A stretch of DNA of 64,000 nucleotides. Source: Gemmataceae bacterium (lineage in GTDB: Bacteria; Planctomycetota; Planctomycetia; Gemmatales; Gemmataceae). The stretch covers positions 4,990 through 68,989 of the forward strand of contig DASRBG010000052.1 in NCBI GenBank assembly GCA_035653735.1, given 5' to 3'. Positions 21,083 to 57,121 of the stretch are shown piece after piece. Made by a program: the position numbers and the translations under genes. Below the pieces are notes generated by a model, which was given only the letters and a program-made list of their open reading frames with translations, was not told where the DNA came from and did no database searches. How positions within the stretch are numbered: position 1 is the stretch's first letter; each line of letters opens with the position of its first letter.

Positions 21083-22690
21083 TCAATTGACCTTGATGGT
21101 GACGCGACTTTCGTTGCCGCCCCGCAAGGTATCGTAGGTGATCTCGACGAGTCCGTTGGCCTTTTCCATCTCACGGTAGAACTCCGCTGGGGTGGAGATC
21201 TCCTGGCCATTGACTTTTTTGATGATCAGATCCGGTCGGAGTCGAGCCTTCTCGGCGGCGCTTCCGGGCAGGACTTCACGGATGACGACGCCTTCGGGGA
21301 TGAATTGCTCCAAGGGCAACACAACGCTGGACCAATCGACGCGCAGTCCGCCGCGCGCCCTCGGCCGATTCGAGGCGATAAGGGGACCGAGGGAAGGAGA
21401 AGGGACGGAGGGAAACTTGGTCAACTTCACCTGGTGGATTTGCCCCTGTCCCGGCCGGACAGGGCTTTGGGATACTTCGACGCGGATGGTGGTGCCAGCC
21501 TGCTGGAGCCCGACGGCGAGAAACAGATCGTCATTGTTGTGGATCGGCGTACCGTTGATGGAAAGAATGTAATCCCCAGGCTCACTGCGAAACCGATTTC
21601 GCATAGGGAAACCACCACGGTAAATCGGCCCGCGGATTCCTCCCTGAACAGCGGGGCCTTTGTCCACCAAGCTGCTGATGCGGACGTAGCCCTCTAGGAT
21701 TTGGTCCGCTCTCTCCAAGTAAACGCCCAGGAAACCGTATTCGACCTCCTCGCCGCGGAGCAGCACGTTGATGATGCGTCGCATGCCGTCGTCGAGCGGC
21801 ACGCCGAAGCCGCCGGGCGTTTCGCCGCCGGCAATGCCGGCCAATGACGAGGTCAAACCAACCAGTTCGCCTTCCAGATTGAGCAAGGCGCCGCCGCTGC
21901 AGCCGAGGTTCATGCGCGTGTCGGTCTGGATCAAGGTATTGAAGCAATAGAGCGGCAGCTTCGCGTTGCGTTCGGTGGTCGAAACGTCGTCGGTCAGCAC
22001 CCCCGTGGCCCGACGGCGCAGATTGCTGACGATGCCCCACGATGAGCTGGGACTGCCGTCGCGAAAGCCGGCCGCGAACGGATTTGACAACGACAGGATG
22101 AAATCACCCTTGCGCAGTTTACTGCCGTCACCGAGTTTGAGCGTCTTGAGATTCGGCTTTCGCTCGATCAAGCGCAGCACGGCGAGGTCACTACGGGGGT
22201 CGGAAGCGTGGATGTCGGCCCAGCTGCCGATTCCGCCCGGCAGACGGACGTAAATCTTCGTGGCGTTGCGAATGACGTGAGCCAGCGTCAGGATCAACCC
22301 TTTTTCGCTGTCGAGAACAATGCCGCTGCCGTAAGCCTCCGGCACGTTATCGGGGTTGCTGAGATCGAGCCGCTGAATCGCCTGGCTTTCGGGACTGTCC
22401 TTGTCCACGGATCGGAGAGCGCTTCGCGCATCGAATCGGCCGAGCTGACCGGGCTGGCGGGGCAGGATCGTATCATACGCGCGGTATTTGTCGCTGCGTG
22501 AGACGAGGATGCAGGCGATGCTCGGCTCGGCCCGCTCGATCGCTTGATGAACCGCCTCTTGCAACGCGAGCACATCGGCAAAGCGATTGCGTTCATCGCC
22601 CAGGGCCGAGGCTGACCCCAGCAAAAGAAGGGTCAGCGGAGTTAGCAAAGCATTACGGCGCATGAGTTGGTTCCTCGTAGCGTCCACCAC
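21083..22690 (-). CDS. HtrA/DegP-family serine protease with two PDZ domains
   Basis: Trypsin-fold triad context: LTLAHVI (His), DLAVLRL (Asp), NLGCSGGALLN (Ser). Two PDZ-like segments follow: GDYILSINGTPI and GVVIREVLPGSAAEKARLRPDLIIKKVNGQEI. Confidence 0.9.
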   Translation of the reverse strand: MVDATRNQLMRRNALLTPLTLLLLGSASALGDERNRFADVLALQEAVHQAIERAEPSIACILVSRSDKYRAYDTILPRQPGQLGRFDARSALRSVDKDSPESQAIQRLDLSNPDNVPEAYGSGIVLDSEKGLILTLAHVIRNATKIYVRLPGGIGSWADIHASDPRSDLAVLRLIERKPNLKTLKLGDGSKLRKGDFILSLSNPFAAGFRDGSPSSSWGIVSNLRRRATGVLTDDVSTTERNAKLPLYCFNTLIQTDTRMNLGCSGGALLNLEGELVGLTSSLAGIAGGETPGGFGVPLDDGMRRIINVLLRGEEVEYGFLGVYLERADQILEGYVRISSLVDKGPAVQGGIRGPIYRGGFPMRNRFRSEPGDYILSINGTPIHNNDDLFLAVGLQQAGTTIRVEVSQSPVRPGQGQIHQVKLTKFPSVPSPSLGPLIASNRPRARGGLRVDWSSVVLPLEQFIPEGVVIREVLPGSAAEKARLRPDLIIKKVNGQEISTPAEFYREMEKANGLVEITYDTLRGGNESRVTIKVN

Positions 22691-34785: not shown

Positions 34786-35913
34786 TCACAGCGGAGGAGC
34801 GATCAATTTGCCGGCGACGGGATGTTCCCATAGTTTCTTGCCGGTGGACAAGTCGATCGCCTTGAGGATCTGCGGTTGCTCGTTCGGCTGATCGAGCGGA
34901 CCGCGGAGTGTCCCAGGCACCAGGTAGAAAACGCGCTTACCCAAAACGACGATGGCGTGCATGCCGGCCTCATCCGGGATGCGGCCAAGAGGCTCGCCCG
35001 TCTGCACCGAGTACAAATGCCAAAAGCTCGGCTTTTTCTTGGGCATCAAAGAGCCATGCTCGTCGGGACCGGGGGTAGACTCGTGAAGACAAAGGACGCG
35101 CTCATCCAGGGTTGTCCGGACCTGCAAGCGTTTGCCCCTCAGCAGTTCCTTGGGCTGCTGCTCCTTCTCGCTTTGCCGGTCCCACGTGTGAAGGACGAAG
35201 CGCTGCTGTCCGTTCTCTTCCTCCAGAGCGAGCACTTTCGAGTATTGCCCAACCAGTCCTTGCCAGCGCAAGGCCTTTTTTTCCAAATGCTCCGGAAGCA
35301 TCGGCGGGGGCGGCAGCTGCTTCTTCTGGGCGGGAAGGATCTCGATCTGCCCGGTGCGAAGCTCGATATGGGCTGTGCCGCTGGCGTGCTTGCGCGCGGC
35401 TAATTCCTCTTCCGGCGTGGCTTGAGACCCACCGGCGTACCAGGCGCTCGCCTCCCATTCCAGCACGAGGTGATGCTTGGCCAGATGCCAGTTTGCCACG
35501 AACGAATGGCCGTGCGCCTCACCTGTCACGACCCAAGCCGGGAAGACAATCGGATCGGATTCGAAATCGCATTCGCCGTTGCGTTTCACATCAAGACGAA
35601 GAATGCGCAGACGATTGCGTTTGGTTCCCGCCTGGGCGATCAAGTGATGACCATCCAGAAGCAGCGGCCGTTGCGCCTCGTGCGTTTGCCACAGCACTTT
35701 GCCGTGCGCCAGATCGATGCACTCGATACCGCCCGTCGCGCTGGCGAAAAAGCCGGTACGCCCCTTTTCATCCGCGATCCCCTCGGGCAGGCGAATGGAA
35801 GCCGCGGCCGCATCCGAAATGAGCCAAAGATGAATACAGATAAACACGGAGGAGCGCGAAAAAAAAGGAAGTTTTCGCAATGGCAACGTGAGTTTGGTCT
35901 TAGTCGTTCTCAT
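34786..35913 (-). CDS. secreted hypothetical protein (possible beta-propeller)
   Basis: 375-aa ORF with coding-like codon usage. GKVLWQT and GKKLWEHPV segments recall PQQ/BamB-like blades. The N-terminal hydrophobic stretch [12 protein letters not shown] is encoded by a repeat element (see 35824..35939). Confidence 0.6.
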
Positions 35914-36021: not shown

Positions 36022-36096
36022 GAGCCGCGCACGCAGCGCAGCGGAGTAAGCGGCACAGGTAGCCCCGCTTACTCCGCATCGCTGCGTGCGCGGCTC
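36022..36096. repeat. palindromic element family E, copy 3
   Basis: 32-bp stem (36022..36053 / 36065..36096) with two adjacent uncompensated mismatches and an 11-nt loop. The right arm overlaps the stop codon (36095..36097) of the Omp85-like gene. Confidence 0.85.
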
Positions 36097-39000
36097 AGAA
36101 AGGATGCTCGATGCCGGCCCAGATTTGCATGGGTGCGGCGCTGTTGACGGTTTTGGCCGCGTCGAGACGGAAGATGGTGCGTTCCACGAAGGTGAACCAA
36201 GCCACGTCCAGGCGCAGACCCGCGCCGACGGCCTCCGTGATGCCGCCGACCGATTGGCCGCTCAGATACACGTCGCCCACATCGCAAAAGGTCGCCGCAT
36301 AAATGCCACGCACATTCAAGGCGTGGTCGAAGCAGCTCCAGTTCAGGTTGCGAATCACGGGGAAACGCCATTCTAAGCTGCCGACCCAGAGCGCGCTTCC
36401 CTGCCGTTGCGCCAGACTGAAGCCGCGGAACAGCTCGCTGCCGCCCAGGGCGAAATACTGAACATAGTTGGGCAAACCAAATGCCCCATAGGCGCGGAAC
36501 GCCAAAACGGTATCCGACAACCAGCCAAGACCGTCGGGCATGGCTTGCACGTAGGTCGCCTGTCCCAGCAATTGATGAGAGCCGCTGAGTCCGAATGTCT
36601 GATTTGGAGGCGTATTCGGCGTCTGCTCCCCCGGCAAAACGAGGCCGGCGGCATAACTGATGTCGGCCGAAAAACCGCCTTCGGGGTTCCAGTAGGGCGT
36701 CAGGTAATTGATGTGGTAGTGGGCGCCGCCGATACCTTGATGGCTAAAGCGCTCCGCCCCCGGCACGCTTTCGATCGCCGTCGGCAGCAGGTTGTCCTGG
36801 ATGGTGACAAAGCTCTCCACGTACTGAAACGGCGGCAGATACAGGCTATCGCCGTAATCGATGACGTAGCGCCCATAGGCGACCCAGCGGTTGGCCGGAG
36901 TCTCTCCGGCGTACGTTCCCGCGATGCGGCGCTCGTAGACGAAGCCGGCCTCCGTGTGCGGCCAGGGGAAATGATCGAAGGTAGCATCGACGCCTTCGAC
37001 GAAATCGCGGTAGTCGGTACGGTAGGCGGAATAAACGCCGCCCTCGAAAGCGGCCGTGCGGTAAGCGCCTGCCCGGACACCAAAGCGGGTCGAGCGCGTG
37101 AACCACGGATTGTCGTAGGTCGGCGCGAAGATCCACGGTCCGAGGATGAAATTCCAGCGGTCGTAAGCGTTGGTCAGGTCCGTCTCATCGAGAAACGTGT
37201 ACAGCGGCGTGGCGCGGAGGCGGAAGCGCGGTTTCCAGTAATTGTTCACCGGATTGCGATCGACCAGGACTTCATCGGGATCGACCGCGATTTGCGTCGG
37301 CCAGCATGGCAGCTCCACTTCGATTTTAACGCGATTTTTTTCCAGCGTCTCGACGCGGCCGGGTGGATCAGTGGTCTCGACCAGGCCGGCCTCCGGTGCG
37401 ACTGGGATGCGCACTTGAAAGCCCTCGCCACCGTCGAGGCAGAAGCCAACGACGGTGGGATCGTTGTAGTCTGCCTTTTGCTTCACGATGACCGTGACCT
37501 TGCAAGGAGTCTTGGGCCGGAACCAGCTGCGAATGGCCGCGCTGTAGCAGTGATAGGTCAATGGGAGCCGGCGCGAGCGACCGCTCGGCAGCGCCTGGAT
37601 GCTGACCTTCTCGATGCACCAGTCCGTCAGGCCCGCGCCATAAACCCAGTGATCGAAAAAGGTCTTCCACGATTTGTGCGTATATTCTTCGAGATCCCGT
37701 TGGAAATCGGCGACGCGCAGGATGCCGAAGGCGTGCCGTCGATAGACGAGGTACATGAAATCGAAGAATGCTTTCTCGCCCAACTCGTGCTCGATCATGC
37801 CGACGATTTTGCTGCCGCGTTCGTAGCACATGCTGTACAGATCGACGATATGTCCAAATTTTGGAATGTCTTGCACGGTCGGCGCCGCCTCCGCGCGAGC
37901 AAGGGTGCCGTATAAGTTGAAATAGCGGTAATCGTTGCGATGTACGTTGGGCAGCCATTTGAGACCTGTCGGGTAGCTTACAAGTGGGTCGTTGGCCCCG
38001 TACTTGGTTTTCATGAGGCGGTAGGCGAAATAGGTGGCCAGCCCCTCGTCCATCCAGGTTTCGCTGTAGCCGTGCGTGCCGACGACGTTGTACCACCATT
38101 GATGGCACGTGGCCTGAGAGACCAGGTAATCGACGAACGCCTTGGCCAGGTGCGGCATGTCGAAGATGCGCGAGTCGATCATGATCAGGCCGGCGCACTC
38201 GTTACTGTTCCAGCCGAAATGCGATTCGACGATGGTAAATTGCTTATACGGATAAGGACCGAACCACTGGCTATAAGCGGTCAGGGCGGCGCGTGCGCTT
38301 TCCACCATGAAACGAGCGTAATGTTCGTTCTTCGGCGCGGCCAGGCAGCGGATTTTGATGTGCCCGCACTGTCCCGTGAACTCTTGAAAGCGATCACTGC
38401 ACACGATGGCGAAGTCGCGAGCGAAACAGGGCGCGAACTCTAACTGCCGCCGTCCGTCAATAAGCGGATCGTCCCGCGCCACCTCGGCAGTGCAGGCGAC
38501 GTGTTGCCCGCGCGGCAAGGTAAGGCGCACCGTGAACAAACCCGCCTCGTTGAAGAATGGCTGATGCCAGCAGACATAGGGCGTCGGCTGCCAGCCCTTG
38601 TCGTCGTAAAATGCCAGTACCGGGAGCCAGTTTGTCAGGAAGGTGATCCCCTGCCAATGGCCCCAACGTCCACATTTCTCCGGTAGTTTCAAAACGAATT
38701 CCAGATCGAGCGTGATCGTCTCGCCTTGACGAACCGGCCGCGGCAGGGGAACGACCAGAGCGGAATCGTTTTTTTCGTCATAGTGGAAAGGCAAGCCCTC
38801 CTCGGCACCCCCAGCCGGCTGACGCCGGCCGTTCGTCGGAGCATCCAATAGCCGAGGCGGAGGCAGCTGCGAATCGATGGATTGATACGCCACTTTTCGC
38901 GGTCGTCCTAACTCTTCCGCATCCTCGACCCGCTCCAGCCTCACCAGACGCACCGTGCGGACATCGAGAGCGTGTCCCTCGAAATCGAGCGATTCGCTGG

Positions 39001-39298
39001 GCATCATGCGCAAGATCTCGAAAATCTTGGCCGTCATGCCCACGTCCTTATCCGGCAGCCGGTAGTGGCTGTGCGCGTTGAAAATCAGCTCGGCTGCCGG
39101 CCGGGCGCAGTTATTCGTCCAGACGATGCGCTGGCGGACCACGGCGGTATGTTCGTCGGTGTCGAGTTGGATGTCCAGGTAATAGCGCGGCAGATTGGGA
39201 GGCACGGCAGCCCATGCCGAGTTGGCGAACAGGGCAAGGGCCGACAGGCTGAGCACAAGGCACAGGCAGGTGCGCAGGTAGAACGTGGATCCAAACAT
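36095..39298 (-). CDS. outer-membrane protein: M1-peptidase-like domain (degenerate zinc site) fused to an Omp85/BamA-TamA-type beta-barrel
   Basis: The signal peptide starts at MFGSTFYLRTCLCLVLSLSALALFANSAWA (ATG 39298; the ORF opens at 39391). The M1 layout is present with QATCH-X18-E in place of HExxH-X18-E (nt 38045..38116). The C-terminal third has Omp85 hallmarks (LGGSELFRGFS ... GSLEWRFPV ... FCDVGDVY ... GAGLRLD ... IWAGIEHPF, with a terminal Phe). Confidence 0.85.
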   Translation of the reverse strand: MFGSTFYLRTCLCLVLSLSALALFANSAWAAVPPNLPRYYLDIQLDTDEHTAVVRQRIVWTNNCARPAAELIFNAHSHYRLPDKDVGMTAKIFEILRMMPSESLDFEGHALDVRTVRLVRLERVEDAEELGRPRKVAYQSIDSQLPPPRLLDAPTNGRRQPAGGAEEGLPFHYDEKNDSALVVPLPRPVRQGETITLDLEFVLKLPEKCGRWGHWQGITFLTNWLPVLAFYDDKGWQPTPYVCWHQPFFNEAGLFTVRLTLPRGQHVACTAEVARDDPLIDGRRQLEFAPCFARDFAIVCSDRFQEFTGQCGHIKIRCLAAPKNEHYARFMVESARAALTAYSQWFGPYPYKQFTIVESHFGWNSNECAGLIMIDSRIFDMPHLAKAFVDYLVSQATCHQWWYNVVGTHGYSETWMDEGLATYFAYRLMKTKYGANDPLVSYPTGLKWLPNVHRNDYRYFNLYGTLARAEAAPTVQDIPKFGHIVDLYSMCYERGSKIVGMIEHELGEKAFFDFMYLVYRRHAFGILRVADFQRDLEEYTHKSWKTFFDHWVYGAGLTDWCIEKVSIQALPSGRSRRLPLTYHCYSAAIRSWFRPKTPCKVTVIVKQKADYNDPTVVGFCLDGGEGFQVRIPVAPEAGLVETTDPPGRVETLEKNRVKIEVELPCWPTQIAVDPDEVLVDRNPVNNYWKPRFRLRATPLYTFLDETDLTNAYDRWNFILGPWIFAPTYDNPWFTRSTRFGVRAGAYRTAAFEGGVYSAYRTDYRDFVEGVDATFDHFPWPHTEAGFVYERRIAGTYAGETPANRWVAYGRYVIDYGDSLYLPPFQYVESFVTIQDNLLPTAIESVPGAERFSHQGIGGAHYHINYLTPYWNPEGGFSADISYAAGLVLPGEQTPNTPPNQTFGLSGSHQLLGQATYVQAMPDGLGWLSDTVLAFRAYGAFGLPNYVQYFALGGSELFRGFSLAQRQGSALWVGSLEWRFPVIRNLNWSCFDHALNVRGIYAATFCDVGDVYLSGQSVGGITEAVGAGLRLDVAWFTFVERTIFRLDAAKTVNSAAPMQIWAGIEHPF

Positions 39299-39398
39299 TG
39301 CCGTCCTGAGATACCGTCCGCAGGACCGAATCACGATAGGGCTAAGCGTGGTGGTCGCATACCATGCCAGCGGAGGATTTGTCCAGGGCAATCTCGGA

Positions 39399-39493
39399 AG
39401 AAAGTGAGGAGTGAGGAGTGAGGAATGAGGGGAAGAAGAGATGCCGGTATTTGTTTTTTCTCCTCACTCCTCACTCCTTACTCCTCACTTTCT
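39399..39493. repeat. palindromic element family F (GTGAGGA heptamer arrays)
   Basis: Stem 39399..39438 / 39454..39493 is 40 positions with one mismatch and a few G-T pairs. The left arm has three GTGAGGA units. It lies in the divergent region between 36095..39298 and 39608..42853. Confidence 0.85.
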
Positions 39494-39577
39494 ACTCCGC
39501 GTTGACGCGACAACGGCCAAACCGTACTATCCGCTCGCTTTTTCTCGTTGTCGCGCGCGGCGCGGCAAGGAGGGCAA

Positions 39578-39607
39578 ACTCAGGATTCAGGACTCAGAAC
39601 TCCGAAC
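39578..39607. repeat. one-armed heptamer array abutting a start codon
   Basis: ACTCAGG ATTCAGG ACTCAGA ACTCCGA AC ends at the nucleotide before the ATG at 39608. The unit is the complement of the family D heptamer. Confidence 0.7.
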
Positions 39608-42600
39608 ATGACCTGGCGGAAATGGCTTGTCCGAAGTCTGGTCTTCTCCGTTTTGGGTCTGGCGATCCTCGTCGCACTGCTCTACGAGGCGTGGACCAAT
39701 CCCGCCGCCGTTCGCCGTCAGGTGCTTGCCAAGCTCCACAAGATCTTCATCGGCGCAACGGTCAATATCGATACCGCCCGGCTGCGCCTGCTCGGCGGCA
39801 TTGGCGTCCGCGATCTACGCATGGCGCGGCGCGACGAACTTGACCGCGGCGATTTCCTCTACGTTCCTTCCGCCGTCATCTATCACGACAAGGAGCACCT
39901 GCTCGATGGCACGCTCGGCGTTCGCAAGATCGAGCTGGATCGGCCGCGCGTCCGCGTCGTGTGCGAACGGGATGGGCGGATCAACCTCTCCGGCCTGCTT
40001 GCCCCCCCCGATCTCAACGAACGAGTGCCAACCCTAATTGTCCGCCGAGGCGTTCTTGTCATTGAGGACCGGCGAGGCCCCTCTCCCACGGTGCTGTTGG
40101 AAATCAAGGATCTCAACCTGACCGTCGTCAACGATCCGCTGTCCACCCTTGTCATCAAAGGGAACGGCCAGAGCGATGCCCTCGGCGCGGTGCGGATTGA
40201 TGCTCGCTTTTATCGTCCTAGCGATGCGGCCAGCGCGGTCGTGGAATTGCCCGAAGTGCCGGTTGGTCCGCCGTTGGTGCAGCGGTTCGTCGGTTTGTGT
40301 CCCGATTGCGCCCGCCACATCCGGGAACTGAGCGGTACCGCTCGCGTTCAGGCGACGTTGGTCTACCGGCCCGGGGCCGGCGCCGCCGAGCCGTTCACCT
40401 ACGATGTCAACTTCGAGTTGAACAAAGGGGAATGGCGACACGAATGTTTGCCCTCGCCGCTTGAGAACATTCACGCCAAGCTGCGCTGCATCAATGGCCG
40501 AATCCCTCACGCCGAGTTGCAGTCGCGGCTCGATGGGGCGAACGTCAAGTTGGATCTGTGGGACGTGGTGTTGCGAGAGCAGGCTCCCAACTGCATCCAG
40601 GACATGGTCGCCAAACTGGAGGCGAAGGTTGAGCATCTCACGGTGACGCCGAGGGTTTTCGAGCACTTGCCGCCGGTGTGCCAGAAGATTCAAAAGACCT
40701 ATAATCCGGCCGGCCCCGTTAGCTTGACCTATCAATTCTATCGCCCTGATGCGGAACGCTGGGAAAAACACTGGACCATAGAACCCGAAGGCATGACGGC
40801 AGAGTTCGAGGACTTTCGCTATCCCATTGAAGGCGTGACCGGCCGCGTCACTCTGGATCAGTCCAGCGGCTGCGACGACTTGATCCAGGTCGATCTGTCC
40901 GGCCGAGGTGCCGATCGTCCCGTCAAGGTAAACGGCTTCATCAAGGGAGACAAGACCAGCGAGGTCGATCTGGTCATCGCCGCGGACGATGTGCCGATCG
41001 ATCACCAGCTGATGAAAGCTTTGCCGGAAAAGAGCCGCGAATTGGCGCGCACGTTCCTACCCTCGGACAGCCGGGAGCTAGGCTTGTCGGAGCAACCCCT
41101 AGGACAGGTGCAGCCGGCGGGACTGGCGAACATCAAGGTGTTCGTTCGCCGCACACGTGGCCAGGAGGCTTTCGCCAACCGTTATCTCATCGCTTTTCAC
41201 GATTCCTCCCTGAAATACGACCTCTTCCCGTATCCGCTGGAGAAGGTGACGGGCGTTCTGGACATTCAACCGGATCACTGGGAATGCCGCGATTTCCATG
41301 GCAGCCATAAGGGGGGCGAAATTTGGGTGGAGGGATCGAACGACGGCCGGAGCGCGGGCGTCCCGCCCGCATCGAGCAGGAGCGCGGCCGAAACGCCCGC
41401 ACCGAGCGGTCGAGACGCCCGCGCTCCGAAGCATGAATGCGTGCAGGTCGCTATCCGCGGCAAGGACATTCTCCTCGATCCGGAGTTCGAGCAAGCATTG
41501 TCGCCGGAGAAGGTGCCGGGGCGGGCCGCGCTGCGCAACGCCTGGGCGATGCTGGCCCTGCGAGGCCGGCTCAGCTTCGAGTCGATCGTCCTCGATCGAC
41601 CGGATCAGCCGCAGGACATTGATGTCGCCGTGGACATCAAAGGCTGCTCCATGCAGCCGGACTTCTTTCGCTACGCCATGACCGACGTCAGCGCGGGCAT
41701 CCGCTATAAGCAGGGGCGCGTCTACGTCAAGGATGTCAGCGCCAAGCACGGCTCCGGCAAGCTGGGATTGAAGGAAGCCACGATCGTCCTCAAACCGTCT
41801 AGTGGTTTCACGGCCTGGTTCACGGACATCACCGGCGAAGATCTGTTGCCCGATGAGGAATTTCTACGAGCCTTGCACCCGGCCTTGAGGCACGGATTGG
41901 AGCCTTTGCAGATCCGCAAACCGCTCCAAGTCAAAACGAAGCTGGTCCTGGATGCGCCGACGGTCCCGGGCGAACCGATGAAAATCTGGTGGGACGGCGG
42001 CGCCGCCTTGCACAAGCAGCTCTTTCAGACAGGCGTGGAAGTGAGCGACGTGGACGGCATCATCTGGTGCGACGGCCATCACAATGGCCGGCAATTCGAT
42101 TACATCAAGGGACATATCGTTCTCGATCGCGCCACGATCCTCGGCCAACCGTTCACCAAATTGCAGGGCCGCATCAAGGTCGCCCCCGAAACGCCGGACA
42201 TTTTGTCGCTATACGATCTCTCGGCCAACGTATTCGGCGGCTTTGTCGGCGGCGAAGCGCGCTTCTTGTTCAGCTCGCCGTTGCGTTACGAGGTAAATCT
42301 CCATGCCCTGAACGTGCAGCTGGAACAGTTCGGCAAACACAATCAGCTCGGCGCCGACGCTCAGCTTCAGGGACCGGCTAGCGCCGGTCTCTACCTGACC
42401 GGCGAAGGCACCGACCTAAGCGGACTCAAGGGCAACGGCCGAGTCGATGTGGCTCGCGGCAAGATGTATCGGCTGCCGTTGCTGCTCGATCTGCTCAAGG
42501 CGTTCGGTCTGCGCATGCCGGACCGAACGGCCTTCGAGCAGGCCCACATGGTTTTCGGCATAGAGGGTCCGCAAATGCGCATTCACAGCCTGGACCTGTA

Positions 42601-42853
42601 CGGCAATGCCATCAGTCTGCGTGGCCAGGGCACCCTCAATATCGTTGATGGCAGCAATCTCAATCTCGATTTCAGTGCCGACCCGGGCCGCATGCCGCAG
42701 TTGCTGCCGCCGGTCATCAGCGATCTCTCACAAGCGGTGAGCGATCAGCTCTTCAAAATCAAGCTGCGCGGCAAACTCAGTTCGCCGCACTTCGAGAAGG
42801 AGTTTGTGCCCGGCGTGGTCGATCCGATTAAGCGGGTGTTTGGGAAATCGTAA
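39608..42853 (+). CDS. AsmA-family / TamB-like large envelope protein
   Basis: MTWRKWLVRSLVFSVLGLAILVALLY is an N-terminal anchor, followed by about 1000 aa of beta-rich sequence. The C-terminus (LDLYGNAISLRGQGTLNI...LNLDFSADP...LFKIKLRGKLSSPHF) is like AsmA/TamB C-terminal regions. The ORF opens at 39548, but the anchor-proximal ATG is at 39608. Confidence 0.75.
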   Translation: MTWRKWLVRSLVFSVLGLAILVALLYEAWTNPAAVRRQVLAKLHKIFIGATVNIDTARLRLLGGIGVRDLRMARRDELDRGDFLYVPSAVIYHDKEHLLDGTLGVRKIELDRPRVRVVCERDGRINLSGLLAPPDLNERVPTLIVRRGVLVIEDRRGPSPTVLLEIKDLNLTVVNDPLSTLVIKGNGQSDALGAVRIDARFYRPSDAASAVVELPEVPVGPPLVQRFVGLCPDCARHIRELSGTARVQATLVYRPGAGAAEPFTYDVNFELNKGEWRHECLPSPLENIHAKLRCINGRIPHAELQSRLDGANVKLDLWDVVLREQAPNCIQDMVAKLEAKVEHLTVTPRVFEHLPPVCQKIQKTYNPAGPVSLTYQFYRPDAERWEKHWTIEPEGMTAEFEDFRYPIEGVTGRVTLDQSSGCDDLIQVDLSGRGADRPVKVNGFIKGDKTSEVDLVIAADDVPIDHQLMKALPEKSRELARTFLPSDSRELGLSEQPLGQVQPAGLANIKVFVRRTRGQEAFANRYLIAFHDSSLKYDLFPYPLEKVTGVLDIQPDHWECRDFHGSHKGGEIWVEGSNDGRSAGVPPASSRSAAETPAPSGRDARAPKHECVQVAIRGKDILLDPEFEQALSPEKVPGRAALRNAWAMLALRGRLSFESIVLDRPDQPQDIDVAVDIKGCSMQPDFFRYAMTDVSAGIRYKQGRVYVKDVSAKHGSGKLGLKEATIVLKPSSGFTAWFTDITGEDLLPDEEFLRALHPALRHGLEPLQIRKPLQVKTKLVLDAPTVPGEPMKIWWDGGAALHKQLFQTGVEVSDVDGIIWCDGHHNGRQFDYIKGHIVLDRATILGQPFTKLQGRIKVAPETPDILSLYDLSANVFGGFVGGEARFLFSSPLRYEVNLHALNVQLEQFGKHNQLGADAQLQGPASAGLYLTGEGTDLSGLKGNGRVDVARGKMYRLPLLLDLLKAFGLRMPDRTAFEQAHMVFGIEGPQMRIHSLDLYGNAISLRGQGTLNIVDGSNLNLDFSADPGRMPQLLPPVISDLSQAVSDQLFKIKLRGKLSSPHFEKEFVPGVVDPIKRVFGKS
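41348..41428. repeat. family I palindromic element inside the TamB-like CDS (exactly 27 codons)
   Basis: 15-bp perfect stem CGGAGCGCGGGCGTC (41348..41362) / GACGCCCGCGCTCCG (41414..41428). Both boundaries fall on codon boundaries of the CDS that starts at 39608. It is translated as RSAGVPPASSRSAAETPAPSGRDARAP. Confidence 0.8.
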
Positions 42854-42936
42854 ATCTCAAAATGGGTCTCAAGTTCTCCTCCTTGACGGGCCGATGATAC
42901 GAAGACGCGCGCTTGCCGCGCGGAACGGAGGTTGGC

Positions 42937-44130
42937 GTGTTTGGCTCGATCCTGCAACGGATGATCCTATGGGAACTCACCAAAGTGTTCCTCATGTCAC
43001 TGGTAGGGATCACCGGCATCCTGCTCATGGCCGGCATCATCGCCGAGGCGTCGCAGCAAGGTCTCGGCCCGGCGCAGATTCTGGCCGCCATCCCCCTTCT
43101 TGTGCCCAGCACGTTGCCTTACACCATCCCAGCTACTACGCTGTTCGCTACCTGCGTCGTCTACGGACGATTGGCCGCCGACAATGAAATCCTTGCGATC
43201 AAATCCGCCGGCATCAACGCCATCCGCGTGGTCCGTCCCGGCATTTTTCTCGGCCTGGCCATGAGCACCGCCACCATGGGTTTGTACTACCGCATCATCC
43301 CCTACACGCACCACCTGCTCCGCGCCATGGTCTTCAATGACGCTCAGGAACTCTTGTATTCCCTGCTGAAAAAACACCATGAAATCAAACAGAACTCTTT
43401 TCCCTACCAGATCTTCGTTAAGGGAGTAAGAGACAGGAAGTTGATCGAACCGATCTTCAAGCGCAAGGACGCGCATGGGGCGATTGACTGGGTGGCTCAT
43501 GCCCGCGAGGCCGAGCTACAAGTGAGGCCCTCCCAGGGCCAGGTGGATGTGCTGGTGAAGCATTGCGTTGTATGGGGCGAAAACGACTCCAGCGGCATCT
43601 TGGAGGACAAACCGCTTACCGTCGAGCTGCCCAAAGATTTTGGCAAATTGAACGAACGCCGGCCGCGCGATCTGACCTGGCAAGAGATTCTCGATCGCCG
43701 CGTCGAGTTAGAAAAGAAGATCGAGGAAATACAAGCAAAGACTTCCGTGGATACGGCACGCTTGCTGCTTATCCAAGCGCCGGAGAACCTTCCTCTCTTT
43801 TTGAAATCCTGCAAGGATCAGATGGACAAAGCTCAACAAGAAATCGTCGCACTGAATGTCGAATTGCAGATGCGCCCGGCGCTTAGCTTGGGCTGTCTGT
43901 TCTTCATTCTGGTTGGCTGTCCGGTCGGCATTTGGTTTAGCCGCAGCGATTACCTCAGCGCCTTCATCACGTGTTTCTTGCCGATCGTGTTCATTTACTA
44001 TCCGTTGATGCTTTGCGGCACCGGCATGGCCAAGGAAGGACGCTACAACATGATCCCGCTCGTCTGGGGCGCGGACGCGGTCGTCGGCGTGATGGGCGTG
44101 GTGTTGTTCTGGCGATTACTGAGGAATTAA
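42937..44130 (+). CDS. LptF/LptG family permease (YjgP/YjgQ)
   Basis: ILQRMILWELTKVFLMSLVGITGILLMAGIIAE... is the typical LptF/G N-terminus. Three N-terminal and three C-terminal helices flank a periplasmic domain. The GTG at 42937 lies 5 nt after GGAGG; the ORF opens at 42913. Confidence 0.85.
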   Translation: MFGSILQRMILWELTKVFLMSLVGITGILLMAGIIAEASQQGLGPAQILAAIPLLVPSTLPYTIPATTLFATCVVYGRLAADNEILAIKSAGINAIRVVRPGIFLGLAMSTATMGLYYRIIPYTHHLLRAMVFNDAQELLYSLLKKHHEIKQNSFPYQIFVKGVRDRKLIEPIFKRKDAHGAIDWVAHAREAELQVRPSQGQVDVLVKHCVVWGENDSSGILEDKPLTVELPKDFGKLNERRPRDLTWQEILDRRVELEKKIEEIQAKTSVDTARLLLIQAPENLPLFLKSCKDQMDKAQQEIVALNVELQMRPALSLGCLFFILVGCPVGIWFSRSDYLSAFITCFLPIVFIYYPLMLCGTGMAKEGRYNMIPLVWGADAVVGVMGVVLFWRLLRN

Positions 44131-52081: not shown

Positions 52082-55000
52082 TCAGAGCAAATTCTTCTGC
52101 TTCCTCAGCAGCCATTCCGTCGTCAGCAACCCCAGCGCGAGAGCGAACAATGCGAAGTGGTTCCACACCACATACGGCGGACCCGGCGCGTTGACCGTTA
52201 CGCGCGTGCCCGTGGGGAGATCGTCGAGGAGGCGGTCGGCGTCGGCGATGGTGTAGAAGCGGCCGTGGGATTCCTCGGCGGCGCGTTCCATGTCGGCCTG
52301 GTTCATGCGCAGGCGCTCCATCTCGCCGGGCGGACGCACTACCTTGCACTCAGCTCGCGGCTTGGGCGTTGCAGACGGCGACGCCAGCCAGAATTTGTAT
52401 TCACCTTCCGGCGTCTGGGTTAGAAGCGTTTCGTAAGTGGCTCGGCTGCCTTCCATCTTCGATAATTGCACCGTCCGCACCTCGGAATCGCCGGGCTTGG
52501 CGGAGTTGCGACGCTCCACTGTAACTTTGACTTGGACATCCGGCGAGGGCGGCGGCGCATCGTCGGGGAAACGCACTGTCATCTTGATTGGCTCGCCGCG
52601 CTTGTAAGCGGTCTGCCGATCCAGGCGCAGATCGATGCGGCCCAGGCGTGTGCGCGCCAGGTAGCGCACCGTCTCGATCCAGAAGCGATTGTAATACGCC
52701 TGGTCCTCACGGTAGTTCCAGCGCCACGTCTCGCAAAAGCCCAGGAACATGCTCCGGCCGGCGCCGGCGAATTGCTGCACGACCAGCGGAAAACCGTCCG
52801 CGCCGCCGGCGTTCTTGTTGTCGGCGCCCTTCTTCGGCAACACGGCCAACACTTCCGCGGCGCGTTTGATCTGGTAGCCGCCGGCATGCCAGTACATCTC
52901 GCGCAGGCGGTTCCATATTGTCTCATTCTCGCGGTCATCGCCGGGGTTGAATTGGAATATCTGATGCGTCCGTCCCATCGGCGTCAAAAGCGGACGATAC
53001 GGTTCGTCTGTTGTTTCATCGTCGGGCGCCTTGTCTGTGGTCACATCGATGGGCAGCACATCCTTAAGCGGCGAATCTTTGTAAGCACTCGGCGCGAAGC
53101 GTTCGCCGGCGATCATGAGCAACCCGCCGCCGCGCTCGCGAACGAAATCGGCCAGATCCTTCAAATGCTCCGCCATCTTCGGATCGTGCTGCGATTGCGG
53201 ATCGACATCGCCGAGGATGACCACGTCGAAATTGTTCAATTCCACCTTGGTGGGGAACGCCGAGATAGCGCTGCGATCCTCCGAAGCGAAGTCCGAATCC
53301 GAATCGAGCAACAGGATCTTCAAATCGATGCTTTTGTTGCCCTTGATGCGGTTGCTCTCGCGCTCCAGAAGCGTCTTGAGGTAGTGATACTCCCAGCGGC
53401 GATAGCCCTCGACATAGAGGACTTTGATCTGCCGCGATTCGTGAACGAAGACGGCGCGTTGCAGGCGATTATTATCTGTCGCCGACTCGTCTTCCTGACC
53501 GGGCACATCGATAACGTAGAGCTTCTCTCCCGGTTCGGTCGGCTGGTGCGTGAGGATCACCTTGACGGTCTTGTTCGTGCCGTCGAACTGAACGGTTTTC
53601 TTGTCGAGCACTTTGTCCTTGCCCTTCTCACGCAGCGTGACGGGCACCGAGAGACGGTTAAACCCCTGAGCGGTAACGTTGACCGTGAAGACGAGACGAT
53701 CGTTGACATAGGCACTATCCGGGCCAGTCATATCGTGCAGGTAGAGATCCTGAACTTCCTGCGCATCGCCGATACCGACGAAAAACAGTGGGACGCCCAT
53801 TTGCTGTGCATATTTCGAAACCTTGACGAGATCCTCGCCCTCAGTCGTGACACCGTCGGTGAGCATGATGACGGCAGCCAGCGAGGAGCCGCGGAAATCG
53901 TTGAGCGCCTGGCGCACGGCCGTGCCAAGCTGGCTGGAATCATTCTTCGGCTCGGCCCGTAAGTCGTTGATGGCTTTCAGAGCCGGGGAAACTTCGTCGA
54001 GAGCAGTCACGTCCACGAGGCGGTGAGCGCGGCTGGAGCAGTGGTAGACGTGGACGCGCACGCGGCGGCGCGTCAGCATGTCCGTGAGCCAATCGGTGTC
54101 GCCGCGCGTGATGAGCGCCTGGGCCAGCGACAAACGCTGGGCGTCCGTCATCCCGTCATGCTTGGCCAGCCGGTCGGCGACTTGCTTGATGCGCGTGTCC
54201 TTGTATTGATCGACGCTCGACATGCTTTGCGAATCATCGAGAATAATCACCATGTCGGGCCAACTTTGCCGCTCGAACCAAACGCGATCGCGCGGCAGCA
54301 ACACGGCGAGCATGAGAAACAGCAAACCCATGCGCAGACCGATGCGGAGCAAGCGCCCAGCAGCATCTTGACGGCGCAGGGTTTGGCTACCCTCGCGGGA
54401 GTAAATGCCATAGGCCAGGACAGCGGCGCCGAGAGCGAGCGTGACGGCCAGCCAGGGATCGGCCCGGTTGTCCCAGAGATACGGCAGATATTCCAAGTGC
54501 CAATGACTGCTTTCGCCGGGGGCCGGGGCCTCAATGCCCGTGACACCTTCTAAGAAGCGCCTCCCGGAATCGGGGAGGAACGCGAGGAAATCACCGGTGA
54601 CGGCGTCATGCACGAGAACCCCAGCAATGCCGAGGACGCAGGCGAGCATCAGCCACGGCAAAACGACGAGCACCCATCGCACCTTGGTCCGTGACTGTGG
54701 CTGACCAGCCTCTTCCAGAGGCGTAACGGCGGCGCTGTAATGACCGAAATGCCAGGCGAGAACAATCTCGGCCACCAGCAGCGCGAACACGACCAAGAGC
54801 AGCCAACGGGCCACGATATCGCCCAAGGGCATCAGCACTCGTTCCGGCTCGCCCTCGGCGGGCGGCGCGTGCTTCACCTGGCCGAGGTCGGTGACAACCT
54901 GTATTTCCCATTCGGGATAGGTTTTCTGTAAATCTTCGCGCGTCGTTCGAGCCAAATCACTCTCGCTGATCTGCTGCGCTTCGTTGAGGGCCGGCACGTT

Positions 55001-57121
55001 GACAGCGAACAGATGTTGCTGTGGATGGCTGCCGATCGTGGCTCTGTAGAAGCCGCTGATGTCGGTGTCGGTCCAGCGCAGCACCGCGGCCTCATCCTGG
55101 GCCTGCAAGCGCGTCGTCTCCGTGCGGCCATCGGGCGTATCGATGGTTGCCTCGGCACCGCTGACGGCGTTGGGCAAATAAAGTTCGATTGGATCCCCGA
55201 CCTGGAAAATCTGCTCGCGCAATCGTGCTGCCGAGGCATAATACAGCAATTCCTGCATCAACGGGGCGAAACTCGGCGATGTTGGCCAGTTGTTCCAGTC
55301 GGCGTTGACAGTCGTGGTGATAAGCACGACTCGGCCGCGCAAACGGCCGCTTCCTGCCTGATTGCCACGTTCGGCGTTCGGACTGGCTGGCGGCCGCCAA
55401 TCGAGGATCGCGGGACCGCCCGACAGCGGAGACGCCTTCGGTTTGCCCGGTATGGGGACGGGCGCGAACGATAGAATGCGACGAGGTCCGGCGCGAGGGG
55501 CCGGCTCAGTCTGGATGAACTGCCGAAAACGCGAAGCGAGCAGATACTCGCGCGCCGATTCGCTGCGAAACGGCTTGAGCGGATCGTCGCGGTCGGCATC
55601 CGGGTCGATCGACAACTGGAAGTCGTAACCACTATTGGCCTTGGCGTAGTCGATCAGCCGGGCCGGCAGCAATCCTTTGCCGTCGCGGTAGAGCATGTCG
55701 TTATAGGCGGAAAAGTCCACGTTCGGTCCGAGACAGAAGACGGCACTGCCTCCGCGGCGGACATGGTTCTCCAGACGGCGCACCTCAGCCAAACTGAGGC
55801 GCGGCACATCGCACAAGAAGACGCAATCGTAGGGCGTCAGGTCGCCCAGTCCCTCATCGGAGAATTGGGACAGCGACAGCACTTTCGGCCGGGCCGCCAC
55901 GGTGGACGGCGCGGTCCGCTCATCATAAGGGTTAAGGGCCAGGCGCAGCCATTCACTGGCGCGGTCGAACGCCTCCACCGCCGGCTTGCCGTTGACGAGC
56001 ATGACCGGAACGGTGTTCTTGACCGTGACCACGGCGCTGCGAAGGTCGTCGAGTTCCAGGTCATCGTTAGCCGTCCGCACGACCAGCACGTAATCGCCGG
56101 GTGCGGGGAACTTATAGGTGAAGGTGACGGGCGCGGCCTCGCCGCGCTTGATCTGCTTGACGGTGGTTTCCTTGACTTCGTGGAGATCAAACCCTTTGTC
56201 CGCTCCGGCGCCGCGGGCCTTGCCGACCGACAGGCTCACGCGGACATCGGTGCGTGTCTCGCCGTAATTGGTAAGCGTGGCAACGATGGGCGTCAAATGG
56301 CCGGTGGAGGCCATCAAATCGTCGAGAGCAAGGTTCGTGACGGCCAGGTTGCCCGCGCCCTCGCGGCCGACATCGACGAAAATGGTTTGTGCTCGTTCCT
56401 TGATTTTTTGCAACGTGGCCGACAACGCCCCCGGCTGGCGCGCGATCCAGGTGGATTGTTGCAAATCGGTTAGGAAATACACTTCGCGCGCCGGATACTT
56501 GCCGGGCGAGGCCCGCACCAGGCTGTCGACGGTATTGAGCGTGGCGGCAAGGTCGGCGTTTCCGTGTGTCAGGCGCAGGTTATCAATTTCGGTGATGACT
56601 TTGCGGGCGTCCTCCGACGGTTCCGGCACGATGCGCCGCGGCGGCGAAGCCATGAGGACGACGCTAAAACCGTCACCGCCGCTCGATGCGCGGACAATTT
56701 GAGCGGCCAAGGCGCGAGCGCGGTCGAAGCAGGTTCCCCCTTCAATCTTCAATCCCATGCTGAACGAGCTATCGACCACAAGAATCTTGTGGGTGCGTTG
56801 ACTGCCGGCGGCCAGGCCGTTGGCCCCGTTGGGTGCGAACCAGCGCCACATAGCCTCGGCCCAGGGCGTGACGCTGGCCATCGCCAAGACGAGCAAAAGA
56901 ACGACCAGGCAGCGGAGGGCCAGTAGTACGATCTGCTCCAACCGCATGCGCCGCGAGTTCTTTTTCTGGGCCGCCAGCAGAAAGCGCATAGCAGCCCAGG
57001 TGACGACCTTGAAACGGCGGCGGTTGAGCAAGTGGATGATGATGGGAATGGAAACCGCGCCACCGGCCACGGCGGCGACTGCCAAGGGCGCTTCCACGAA
57101 AGCAAGCGGGAGCCAGTTCAC
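52082..57121 (-). CDS. giant BatA-N-terminal / double-VWA membrane protein
   Basis: 1679 aa. The N-terminus PLAVAAVAGGAVSIPIIIHLLNRRRFKVVTWAAMRFL is an aerotolerance BatA-type membrane anchor. There are two VWA-like MIDAS contexts (KILVVDSSFSMG and MVIILDDSQSMS), internal helices, and a C-terminal region typical of planctomycete BatA-like giants. Confidence 0.9.
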   Translation of the reverse strand: MNWLPLAFVEAPLAVAAVAGGAVSIPIIIHLLNRRRFKVVTWAAMRFLLAAQKKNSRRMRLEQIVLLALRCLVVLLLVLAMASVTPWAEAMWRWFAPNGANGLAAGSQRTHKILVVDSSFSMGLKIEGGTCFDRARALAAQIVRASSGGDGFSVVLMASPPRRIVPEPSEDARKVITEIDNLRLTHGNADLAATLNTVDSLVRASPGKYPAREVYFLTDLQQSTWIARQPGALSATLQKIKERAQTIFVDVGREGAGNLAVTNLALDDLMASTGHLTPIVATLTNYGETRTDVRVSLSVGKARGAGADKGFDLHEVKETTVKQIKRGEAAPVTFTYKFPAPGDYVLVVRTANDDLELDDLRSAVVTVKNTVPVMLVNGKPAVEAFDRASEWLRLALNPYDERTAPSTVAARPKVLSLSQFSDEGLGDLTPYDCVFLCDVPRLSLAEVRRLENHVRRGGSAVFCLGPNVDFSAYNDMLYRDGKGLLPARLIDYAKANSGYDFQLSIDPDADRDDPLKPFRSESAREYLLASRFRQFIQTEPAPRAGPRRILSFAPVPIPGKPKASPLSGGPAILDWRPPASPNAERGNQAGSGRLRGRVVLITTTVNADWNNWPTSPSFAPLMQELLYYASAARLREQIFQVGDPIELYLPNAVSGAEATIDTPDGRTETTRLQAQDEAAVLRWTDTDISGFYRATIGSHPQQHLFAVNVPALNEAQQISESDLARTTREDLQKTYPEWEIQVVTDLGQVKHAPPAEGEPERVLMPLGDIVARWLLLVVFALLVAEIVLAWHFGHYSAAVTPLEEAGQPQSRTKVRWVLVVLPWLMLACVLGIAGVLVHDAVTGDFLAFLPDSGRRFLEGVTGIEAPAPGESSHWHLEYLPYLWDNRADPWLAVTLALGAAVLAYGIYSREGSQTLRRQDAAGRLLRIGLRMGLLFLMLAVLLPRDRVWFERQSWPDMVIILDDSQSMSSVDQYKDTRIKQVADRLAKHDGMTDAQRLSLAQALITRGDTDWLTDMLTRRRVRVHVYHCSSRAHRLVDVTALDEVSPALKAINDLRAEPKNDSSQLGTAVRQALNDFRGSSLAAVIMLTDGVTTEGEDLVKVSKYAQQMGVPLFFVGIGDAQEVQDLYLHDMTGPDSAYVNDRLVFTVNVTAQGFNRLSVPVTLREKGKDKVLDKKTVQFDGTNKTVKVILTHQPTEPGEKLYVIDVPGQEDESATDNNRLQRAVFVHESRQIKVLYVEGYRRWEYHYLKTLLERESNRIKGNKSIDLKILLLDSDSDFASEDRSAISAFPTKVELNNFDVVILGDVDPQSQHDPKMAEHLKDLADFVRERGGGLLMIAGERFAPSAYKDSPLKDVLPIDVTTDKAPDDETTDEPYRPLLTPMGRTHQIFQFNPGDDRENETIWNRLREMYWHAGGYQIKRAAEVLAVLPKKGADNKNAGGADGFPLVVQQFAGAGRSMFLGFCETWRWNYREDQAYYNRFWIETVRYLARTRLGRIDLRLDRQTAYKRGEPIKMTVRFPDDAPPPSPDVQVKVTVERRNSAKPGDSEVRTVQLSKMEGSRATYETLLTQTPEGEYKFWLASPSATPKPRAECKVVRPPGEMERLRMNQADMERAAEESHGRFYTIADADRLLDDLPTGTRVTVNAPGPPYVVWNHFALFALALGLLTTEWLLRKQKNLL

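Follow-up and report, generated by a model that had tools for sequence, protein, structure and literature searches.

Why is a peptidase-like region with replaced catalytic residues kept on a protein that ends in an outer-membrane barrel? The question is raised by a gene in a 64,000-nucleotide stretch of DNA from a Gemmataceae bacterium (Planctomycetota; GenBank assembly GCA_035653735.1, contig DASRBG010000052.1, positions 4,990 to 68,989), which we call the window. A first-pass annotation had described the gene product as an M1-peptidase-like domain with a disabled zinc site fused to an Omp85-type beta-barrel, with no POTRA domains between the two parts, and had suggested that the pseudo-peptidase takes the place of POTRA domains, as a substrate-binding or chaperone module in outer-membrane biogenesis or secretion. 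We found that the chimera is real, as judged by Pfam matches, AlphaFold2 models and Foldseek comparisons, and that the window protein belongs to a large, uncharacterized M1-Omp85 family in Gemmatales and Candidatus Omnitrophota. We lean toward reading it as a non-hydrolytic, peptide-binding pseudo-peptidase carried on an Omp85 barrel in the outer membrane, with the peptidase-like module probably facing the periplasm.

The M1-like module and the Omp85-type barrel

The gene is a complete coding sequence at 36095..39298 on the minus strand, encoding 1067 amino acids plus a stop, the extent that the first-pass annotation had given it. The open reading frame (ORF) listing extends the frame to 36095..39391 (-), starting from a TTG. 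We took 36095..39298 as the gene because the ATG at 39298 yields a 1067-residue protein that, on inspection, begins with a typical Sec signal peptide (MFGSTFYLRTCLCLVLSLSALALFANSAWA, followed by AVPP), because its near relatives in separate assemblies have this length too, and because the TTG at 39391 falls within an upstream sequence block that is conserved with two related loci, L005 and L006. The signal peptide comprises residues 1-30 (39209..39298; cleavage motif AWA↓A) and residues 2-24 form a helix in the AlphaFold2 model. All features of the gene described below are on the minus strand.

The N-terminal part of the protein has the domain layout of M1 aminopeptidases. Pfam Peptidase_M1 (PF01433) matched residues 332-551 above its cut-off (E=5e-15, 56 bits versus 27.7). 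A full-length AlphaFold2 model, built from 96 family sequences, had a mean predicted local distance difference test score (pLDDT) of 86.5 and a predicted template modeling score of 0.85. It consists of the signal helix, a beta domain (38-320), a helical thermolysin-like domain (322-551), an all-beta sandwich (560-672), a linker (673-714) and 16 beta strands (715-1064), as assigned with DSSP. In Foldseek searches the whole model matched IRAP, ERAP1, ERAP2 and puromycin-sensitive aminopeptidase (PSA) with E values of ~1e-23 to 1e-20 (best E=6e-24), in alignments of ~680 columns that cover M1 domains I-III. The helical domain IV of M1 enzymes is absent and the barrel occupies its place. We assign residues 31-320 (38339..39208) to domain I from the model and Foldseek, and residues 321-555 (37634..38338) to the thermolysin-like domain II from Pfam, phmmer, the model, Foldseek and the pattern of selection described below. 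Residues 556-672 (37283..37633) form a predicted beta sandwich that resembles M1 domain III. Within domain I, residues 129-163 (38810-38914, -) are a variable insert rich in Pro, Gly and charged residues, with pLDDT<50 and poor conservation among homologues.

Two catalytic residues of the M1 site are replaced in domain II, as first annotated. The segment at 38045..38116 translates to QATCHQWWYNVVGTHGYSETWMDE, which reads Q395-A396-x-x-H399-X18-E418. In phmmer alignments to PSA and aminopeptidase A, QATCH falls on HELAH/HELVH, NSNEC on GAMEN, and WMDEG on WLNEG, so that Gln395 stands in place of the first zinc-ligand His and Ala396 in place of the general-base Glu; there is no intact HExxH in the window protein. 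The motif retains its spacing and, in His399 and the distal Glu418, two metal ligands; Glu367 of the GxMEN counterpart and Tyr492 of the SYxKG region are present as well. In GWNSNEC (38195..38215) only the Glu of GxMEN aligns by phmmer, and we take Glu367 to be the counterpart of the M1 residue that anchors the free N-terminus of the substrate. Tyr492 (37823..37825) falls on the SYSKG Tyr of PSA and is invariant across the family; it is presumably the transition-state-stabilizing Tyr of M1 enzymes. Missing both its general base and a zinc ligand, the module would be unable to hydrolyze peptides, judging from the established mechanism of M1 and thermolysin-type enzymes.

Two cysteines, Cys368 (38195-38197, -) and Cys398 (38105-38107, -), lie on either side of the active site. 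Both are close to invariant among Gemmatales members (GNEC, HExCH), and neither is present in Omnitrophota (GGEQ, HETGH). A disulfide between them is possible and would be consistent with an extracytoplasmic protein.

The C-terminal part is confirmed as a predicted 16-stranded barrel of the Omp85 type (residues 715-1067, 36098..37156), weak as the match is by sequence alone. Pfam Omp85 (PF01103) matched residues 871-1031 below its cut-off (E=0.004, 17-20 bits versus 24), and the NCBIfam model Omp85_fam matched residues 949-1067 (E=2e-5). A separate model of residues 556-1067 (pLDDT 86.1) matched BamA and TamA barrels in Foldseek with a best E of 7e-9, a probability of 1.00 and TM scores of 0.52-0.57, normalized to barrel-only chains. 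Relatives exceed the Pfam cut-off (58 bits for P0231, 49 bits for P0228), many others have precomputed matches, and the window barrel aligns to P0231 by phmmer with E=3e-15. The barrel hallmarks and terminal Phe noted in the first-pass annotation are present: FRGF (residues 957-960, 36419..36430) in loop L6, which joins strand 11 to strand 12, FCDVG (1004-1008, 36275..36289) in strand 13, and Phe1067 (36098..36100), a beta-signal-type terminus at the end of ...HPF. All three are nearly invariant across the family. In the structures of BamA, TamA and FhaC, L6 is locked inside the Omp85 barrel by two motifs, its own (V/I)RG(Y/F) and (F/G)xDxG, and we take FRGF and FCDVG to be their respective counterparts.

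The absence of POTRA domains also held. POTRA families gave no match to the whole protein at E<=1 or to residues 556-720 at E<=10, and the middle region is modeled as the beta sandwich described above. Between the sandwich and the barrel is a conserved linker (residues 673-714, 37157..37282) with the motif VDPDxVLVDRxPxNNYWKP..., which Omnitrophota members also have. Long and short connections alternate in the barrel model. Because of this loop-length pattern and the position of L6, and given the known topology of BamA, strand 1 should start on the periplasmic side. We infer from the model that the M1-like module is attached at strand 1, where POTRA5 joins BamA.

A two-phylum family with repeated loss of catalytic residues

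The fusion is found across Gemmatales and Candidatus Omnitrophota. A search with the whole protein found 651 relatives at E<=0.001. The best 120 of these are 48-96% identical and, where named, are called 'M1 family aminopeptidase' from metagenome-assembled genomes (MAGs) of Gemmataceae or Gemmatales, many with precomputed PF01433 and PF01103 matches. A scan of species-representative genomes, in which the linker motif served as a search pattern, gave 536 confirmed M1-Omp85 loci, and the best 80 of them are overwhelmingly from Gemmataceae and Gemmatales, including Limnoglobus roseus PX52 (whose copy, L080, is intact), Fimbriiglobus and Zavarzinella. Against 1.84 billion representative proteins, a phmmer search with the isolated barrel matched only 235 at E<=0.001. 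Of these, the best 150 are either family-length or fragmentary, and no canonical BamA was evident among them. The scarcity of matches outside the family indicates that the barrel is very divergent in sequence.

Distant members led to Omnitrophota. We scanned ten distant barrel matches with Pfam: seven contain Peptidase_M1, five of them (P0161, P0182, P0228, P0231 and P0246) together with an above-cut-off Omp85 match, two shorter proteins (P0167 and P0214) have a weak Omp85 match only, and P0251 has neither. A search with P0231 found 310 further proteins, some of them named by NCBI as 'BamA/TamA family outer membrane protein' or 'M1 family aminopeptidase' of Candidatus Omnitrophota. The Omnitrophota-type proteins have HETGH, LRGY or LRGF, FxDxG, a terminal Phe and the linker VxDPxxxVLDxDRxNNxWP. 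Because the zinc motif, barrel motifs, terminal Phe and linker are common to both groups, we consider the fusion homologous in Gemmatales and Omnitrophota. The architecture is thus visible in database annotation, yet it appears to be undescribed: full-text searches of the literature, which also took in variants of Omp85 in planctomycetes and proteomics of the Gemmata envelope, gave no account of the M1-Omp85 combination.

The architecture does not in itself entail a disabled site. We aligned the window protein with its 120 best homologues (121 sequences). Intact HExxH-X18-E, with His-Glu at positions 395 and 396, is present in 75. Gln395 followed by a small residue (Ala in 34, Gly in 6, Val in 1 and Ser in 1) is present in 42, which we call the dead group. 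P0046 and P0049 have HA and SG at these positions, respectively, and two fragments lack the region. Nearly all Omnitrophota members keep HExxH-X18-E. Because most members keep this motif, we conclude that the fusion began as an aminopeptidase linked to a barrel; the other members have the features of functional aminopeptidases anchored in this way, and the window copy is, on the sequence comparison, a derived pseudo-enzyme paralogue. In public annotation dead-clade proteins bear the name 'M1 family aminopeptidase', which, taken as a claim of activity, is probably mistaken.

Most of the remaining site is retained in the dead group. Glu367, Tyr492 and Cys368 are present in 42/42 sequences, and His399 and Glu418 in 40/42; the exceptions, P0051 and P0053, have lost both of the latter residues, yet are full length with intact barrel motifs. 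Few differences between dead and intact sequences are fixed: H395Q, E396A, G365S, D493E, Y522H and two conservative changes. The GxMEN region, which had been described as degenerate, does read GWNSNEC in the window protein, but active members read GW[N]GNEC and only G365S follows the dead clade. The divergence of this motif is therefore family-wide.

Catalytic residues were apparently lost repeatedly and independently within one paralogous lineage. In a neighbor-joining tree of genomic loci, the QATCH sequences formed one clade, sister to a HETCH sequence. A second neighbor-joining tree had denser sampling, active-site columns removed and 200 bootstraps. The wider '...EHPF' lineage was recovered in 200/200 replicates and the QA core in 183/200. 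Dead sequences grouped with intact ones: the QA core with P0042 (QG) and P0034 (HE) in 199/200, P0036 (QG) with P0038 (HE) in 187/200, and P0040 (HE) with P0046 (HA) in 154/200. Monophyly of all dead sequences was recovered in 0/200. These groupings suggest several losses in one lineage.

Dead and intact copies can be present in the same genome. Five MAGs hold a QATCH copy and a second copy, ~45% identical, with intact HE[IV]CH: Centralia_MAG_388 (L005/L054), SMAG_U3862 (L006/L058), BP6.bin110 (L009/L038), SMAG_U11228 (L010/L047) and Centralia_MAG_199 (L012/L052). Other MAGs with a dead copy had no intact partner among the loci kept. Some genomes hold two intact paralogues, indicating that duplication is common beyond the dead lineage; OY970367.1, for example, carries two intact (HETCH) copies, L036 and L042.

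The dead copies are under purifying selection. We calculated the ratio of nonsynonymous to synonymous substitution rates (dN/dS, Nei-Gojobori) for the window gene versus six dead-clade relatives, and for eight dead-clade pairs in all. The overall dN/dS of the window gene was 0.10-0.13. For residues 321-555 it was 0.06-0.09 versus the window gene and up to 0.11 among other members of the clade. Of the four domains, this catalytic-like one ranked lowest in dN/dS in seven pairs out of eight and second lowest in the other (L007/L008). The dead-clade values were equal to or below those of the intact '...GVPF' paralogue (0.05-0.16), the type to which L054 and L058 belong. Low values such as these, even if approximate, exclude gene decay. 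We also considered that QATCH might be a sequencing error or mark a decaying pseudogene; the chance of this is negligible, and the idea is refuted by the presence of QATCH in dozens of independent assemblies, the intact frame and a dN/dS of ~0.1.

Possible function and genomic neighborhood

The substrate-binding role that we prefer for the dead module is plausible from the pattern of retained residues. Because Glu367, Tyr492, His399 and Glu418 are kept and the domain is constrained, the cleft presumably still binds something, most simply the N-termini of peptides. The protein would be exported by Sec to the outer membrane, with M1-like domains I-III followed by the linker of ~40 residues leading into barrel strand 1. 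The dead cleft would bind N-termini of peptides or proteins without cutting them and so act as a substrate trap, receptor or regulator attached to the barrel. The predicted topology and the motifs that lock L6 make it likely that the module faces the periplasm. The barrel could serve only as an anchor, or it could act as a conduit or an insertase. Speth et al. 2012 reported BamA in every planctomycete genome that they examined, that of Gemmata obscuriglobus among them (PMC3422733), so the window protein is likely an extra Omp85 protein and not the main insertase.

The neighborhood of the window gene is shared only with its closest relatives. Divergent from it is a gene for a 1101-residue, membrane-anchored protein (39548..42853, +) whose N-terminus is DUF748/AsmA-like, directly followed by a gene for an LptF/LptG-family permease. 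The pair spans 39548-44130 (+) and looks like an outer-membrane lipid or lipopolysaccharide transport operon. No DUF490/TamB C-terminal domain was detected in the AsmA-like protein and a sequence search of the PDB gave no match to it. Of 84 related loci searched by tblastn with the neighbors, L005 and L006 alone, which are closest to the window gene (82% identity), have this arrangement. L003/L007, L004, L008, L009, L010 and more distant members lack it, and the neighbors of P0088, P0040, P0024 and P0033 are unrelated to those in the window. We therefore rejected the AsmA-like/LptFG neighborhood as a general functional link, and nothing ties the protein to the role in outer-membrane biogenesis that had been proposed for it.

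Other neighbors are also variably conserved. A gene at 34786..35913 (-), 181 bp downstream of the M1-Omp85 gene and followed by MetK, encodes a secreted protein of 375 residues with a weak PQQ_2/BamB-like match (E=2e-4, below cut-off) and no match in the PDB. It is kept downstream of the dead-clade gene in L003/L007, L005, L006, L012 and L039, and not in L008-L010. The flanking families that emerged from clustering were antisense shadow ORFs and PSCyt/PSD1 and DUF1501-like genes in varying positions. The latter families are highly multi-copy in planctomycetes, and we did not treat any of these as meaningful. The intergenic region between the M1-Omp85 and AsmA-like genes contains a hairpin of GTGAGGA heptad repeats (39395-39500; arms of ~40 nt, folding free energy of -62 kcal/mol, z-score of -10 versus shuffled sequences). 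The repeat is nowhere else in the window and the hairpin is not at the same place in L005 or L006. A sigma-70 consensus scan of the minus strand upstream of the M1-Omp85 gene found no promoter. Elsewhere, the window contains further envelope genes, encoding an unusually long, 918-residue M50/RseP-like site-2 protease with PDZ-family matches (17044-19800, +), a DegP/HtrA-like protease with PDZ domains (21083-22690, -) and a 1679-residue BatA/VWA protein (52082-57121, -).

Gene order around the Omnitrophota homologues hints at a proteolytic role inside the envelope for the family. The conserved housekeeping block there contains genes for AsnC, an aminotransferase, a small TPR protein, Peptidase_M48, M1-Omp85, YjbQ, PfkB and Era. 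Within it the M1-Omp85 gene comes directly after the small TPR gene in 4/4 loci and after the Peptidase_M48 gene, with a membrane N-domain, in 3/4 (L085, 6438-10838; L086, 4461-10835; L087, 4609-7841; L088, 3475-7847). In L085, L087 and L088 the start of the M1-Omp85 gene overlaps or abuts the upstream gene, suggesting co-transcription. In L086 an unannotated gene of 666 codons separates the M48 and M1-Omp85 genes. Such a role would be loosely parallel to that of BepA, which works with BAM.

Several points weigh against a peptide-binding pseudo-peptidase that faces the periplasm. The Gln/His/Glu site could still bind metal. The N-terminal passengers of type V secretion proteins also start in the periplasm, yet they reach the cell surface. 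Values of dS were 0.7-1.5, near saturation, so the dN/dS ratios are approximate, and the trees were made by neighbor joining only. Evidence for an intact paralogue comes from related MAGs, not from the genome to which the window belongs. All-versus-all clustering of flanking ORFs from ~80 loci gave no conserved partner gene in Gemmatales.

The orientation of the module separates our preferred reading from an unlikely, though not far-fetched, one in which the barrel exports its own M1 module to the cell surface, much as in type V secretion. Active paralogues would then scavenge extracellular peptides, and the dead copy would be a surface peptide-binding protein or adhesin. The order of enzyme and barrel matches that of type V passengers (PlpD and FplA of type Vd, and classical autotransporter enzymes), and the conserved linker ahead of strand 1 could in principle span the lumen. 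However, type Vd proteins have a POTRA domain and the window protein has none, and it conserves the FRGF and FxDxG motifs that form the lock in BamA and TamA, where L6 fills the lumen. A three-domain module of ~640 residues would also need to cross unfolded, and the M48 gene that precedes the family gene in three of the four Omnitrophota loci fits a role inside the envelope. Also in favor of display, AaaA is an aminopeptidase of the autotransporter type (PMC3426542), and Heinz and Lithgow posed the same alternative for the Omp85-'Metallo' group (PMC4104836).

That the dead module substitutes for POTRA is distinctly improbable. In that case it would dock clients or partners, and the Omp85 protein would pair with an AsmA-like/DUF748 protein, as TamA does with TamB, in outer-membrane biogenesis. 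The divergent AsmA-like gene with LptF/G, recurring in L005 and L006, would fit this, and the part of the first-pass suggestion that stands is that the module sits at the POTRA5 position. Several points speak against the substitution itself: the family was ancestrally a barrel-anchored, active peptidase, the synteny is confined to two relatives, the AsmA-like neighbor has no detected TamB domain, and a canonical BamA is reported in Gemmata (PMC3422733). We regard it as very unlikely, too, that the protein is an enzyme with a new activity, in which Gln395, His399 and Glu418 hold a metal and support another reaction, or slow hydrolysis by way of Glu367 or Tyr492. Gln395 is found in all 42 sequences of the dead group, the rest of the site is retained and selective constraint on the domain is very strong, as such an enzyme would call for. 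But position 396 varies among the small residues Ala, Gly, Val and Ser, P0051 and P0053 lack His399 and Glu418 as well, and the independent losses left different residues (SG, HA, QG and QA); these features point to a relaxed need for chemistry and not to a newly designed site.

Omp85 proteins are central to outer-membrane biogenesis and two-partner secretion, and their handling of substrates is attributed to POTRA domains. A bolder form of the peptide-binding reading, which we offer as speculation and think rather improbable, is that M1-Omp85 proteins are an unrecognized class of Omp85 in which a peptidase cleft, in place of POTRA, captures the free N-termini of client polypeptides where the barrel opens to the periplasm. 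Trimming or degradation of these clients would fall to active paralogues, and the dead lineage would be a pure receptor that holds them for translocation, insertion or quality control. If this is true, cleft-based capture of N-termini would be a new mode of substrate recognition for an Omp85 protein.

The family is of interest in other ways. A family in two phyla (hundreds of Gemmatales species-representative genomes and hundreds of Omnitrophota proteins) has an aminopeptidase where POTRA would be, which shows how different the periplasmic or surface modules joined to an Omp85 barrel can be. The recurrent loss of catalytic residues under purifying selection is a natural experiment that parts peptide binding from cleavage, and the dead variants are ready-made for probing what the module recognizes.

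Comparison with known systems

The window protein has the folds and order of domains I-III of M1 aminopeptidases (ERAP1/2, IRAP, PSA, PepN and tricorn-interacting factor F3), and intact M1-Omp85 members have HExxH-X18-E, the Glu at the GxMEN position and the Tyr. It differs from these enzymes in having a barrel in place of helical domain IV and in the replacement of the first His and the catalytic Glu. TAF2 and other non-peptidase M1 homologues and pseudo-enzymes are examples of a peptidase fold kept under selection after loss of catalytic residues, with active paralogues alongside. None of these M1 homologues is known to be fused to a membrane barrel.

A zinc protease tied to an Omp85 protein has a parallel in BepA (M48 plus TPR), which acts with BAM, and the Omnitrophota gene order of TPR, M48 and M1-Omp85 recalls it. 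In M1-Omp85, however, the protease is covalently fused and of the M1 type, the Omnitrophota M48 neighbor has a membrane-embedded Ste24-type N-domain, and the window has no TPR or M48 neighbors of this kind.

The window protein resembles BamA and TamA in its predicted 16-stranded barrel, the xRG(F/Y) motif of L6, FxDxG in strand 13, the C-terminal aromatic residue and the attachment of an N-terminal module at strand 1. Unlike them, it has an M1-like module of ~640 residues, no POTRA and a very divergent barrel sequence. Its pairing with an AsmA-like partner, unlike that of TamA with TamB, is kept only in L005 and L006.

Omp85 barrels with other N-terminal arrangements are already known. The 2014 Omp85/TpsB survey of Heinz and Lithgow distinguished ten subfamilies, including PF00149 'Metallo' and 'noNterm', and so recognized subfamilies that lack POTRA; it made no mention of peptidase M1 or Planctomycetes (PMC4104836). 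Like the window protein, these two groups are Omp85 barrels with a non-POTRA enzyme domain or no N-terminal domain, and they raise the same question of periplasm versus surface; the enzyme domain of 'Metallo' is PF00149, in contrast to PF01433 in the window protein. PlpD and FplA (type Vd) likewise have an enzyme domain N-terminal to an Omp85-like barrel of 16 strands. Their passenger is a patatin lipase that is secreted and accompanied by one POTRA domain (PMC4104836), in contrast to the M1-type, POTRA-less protein of the window.

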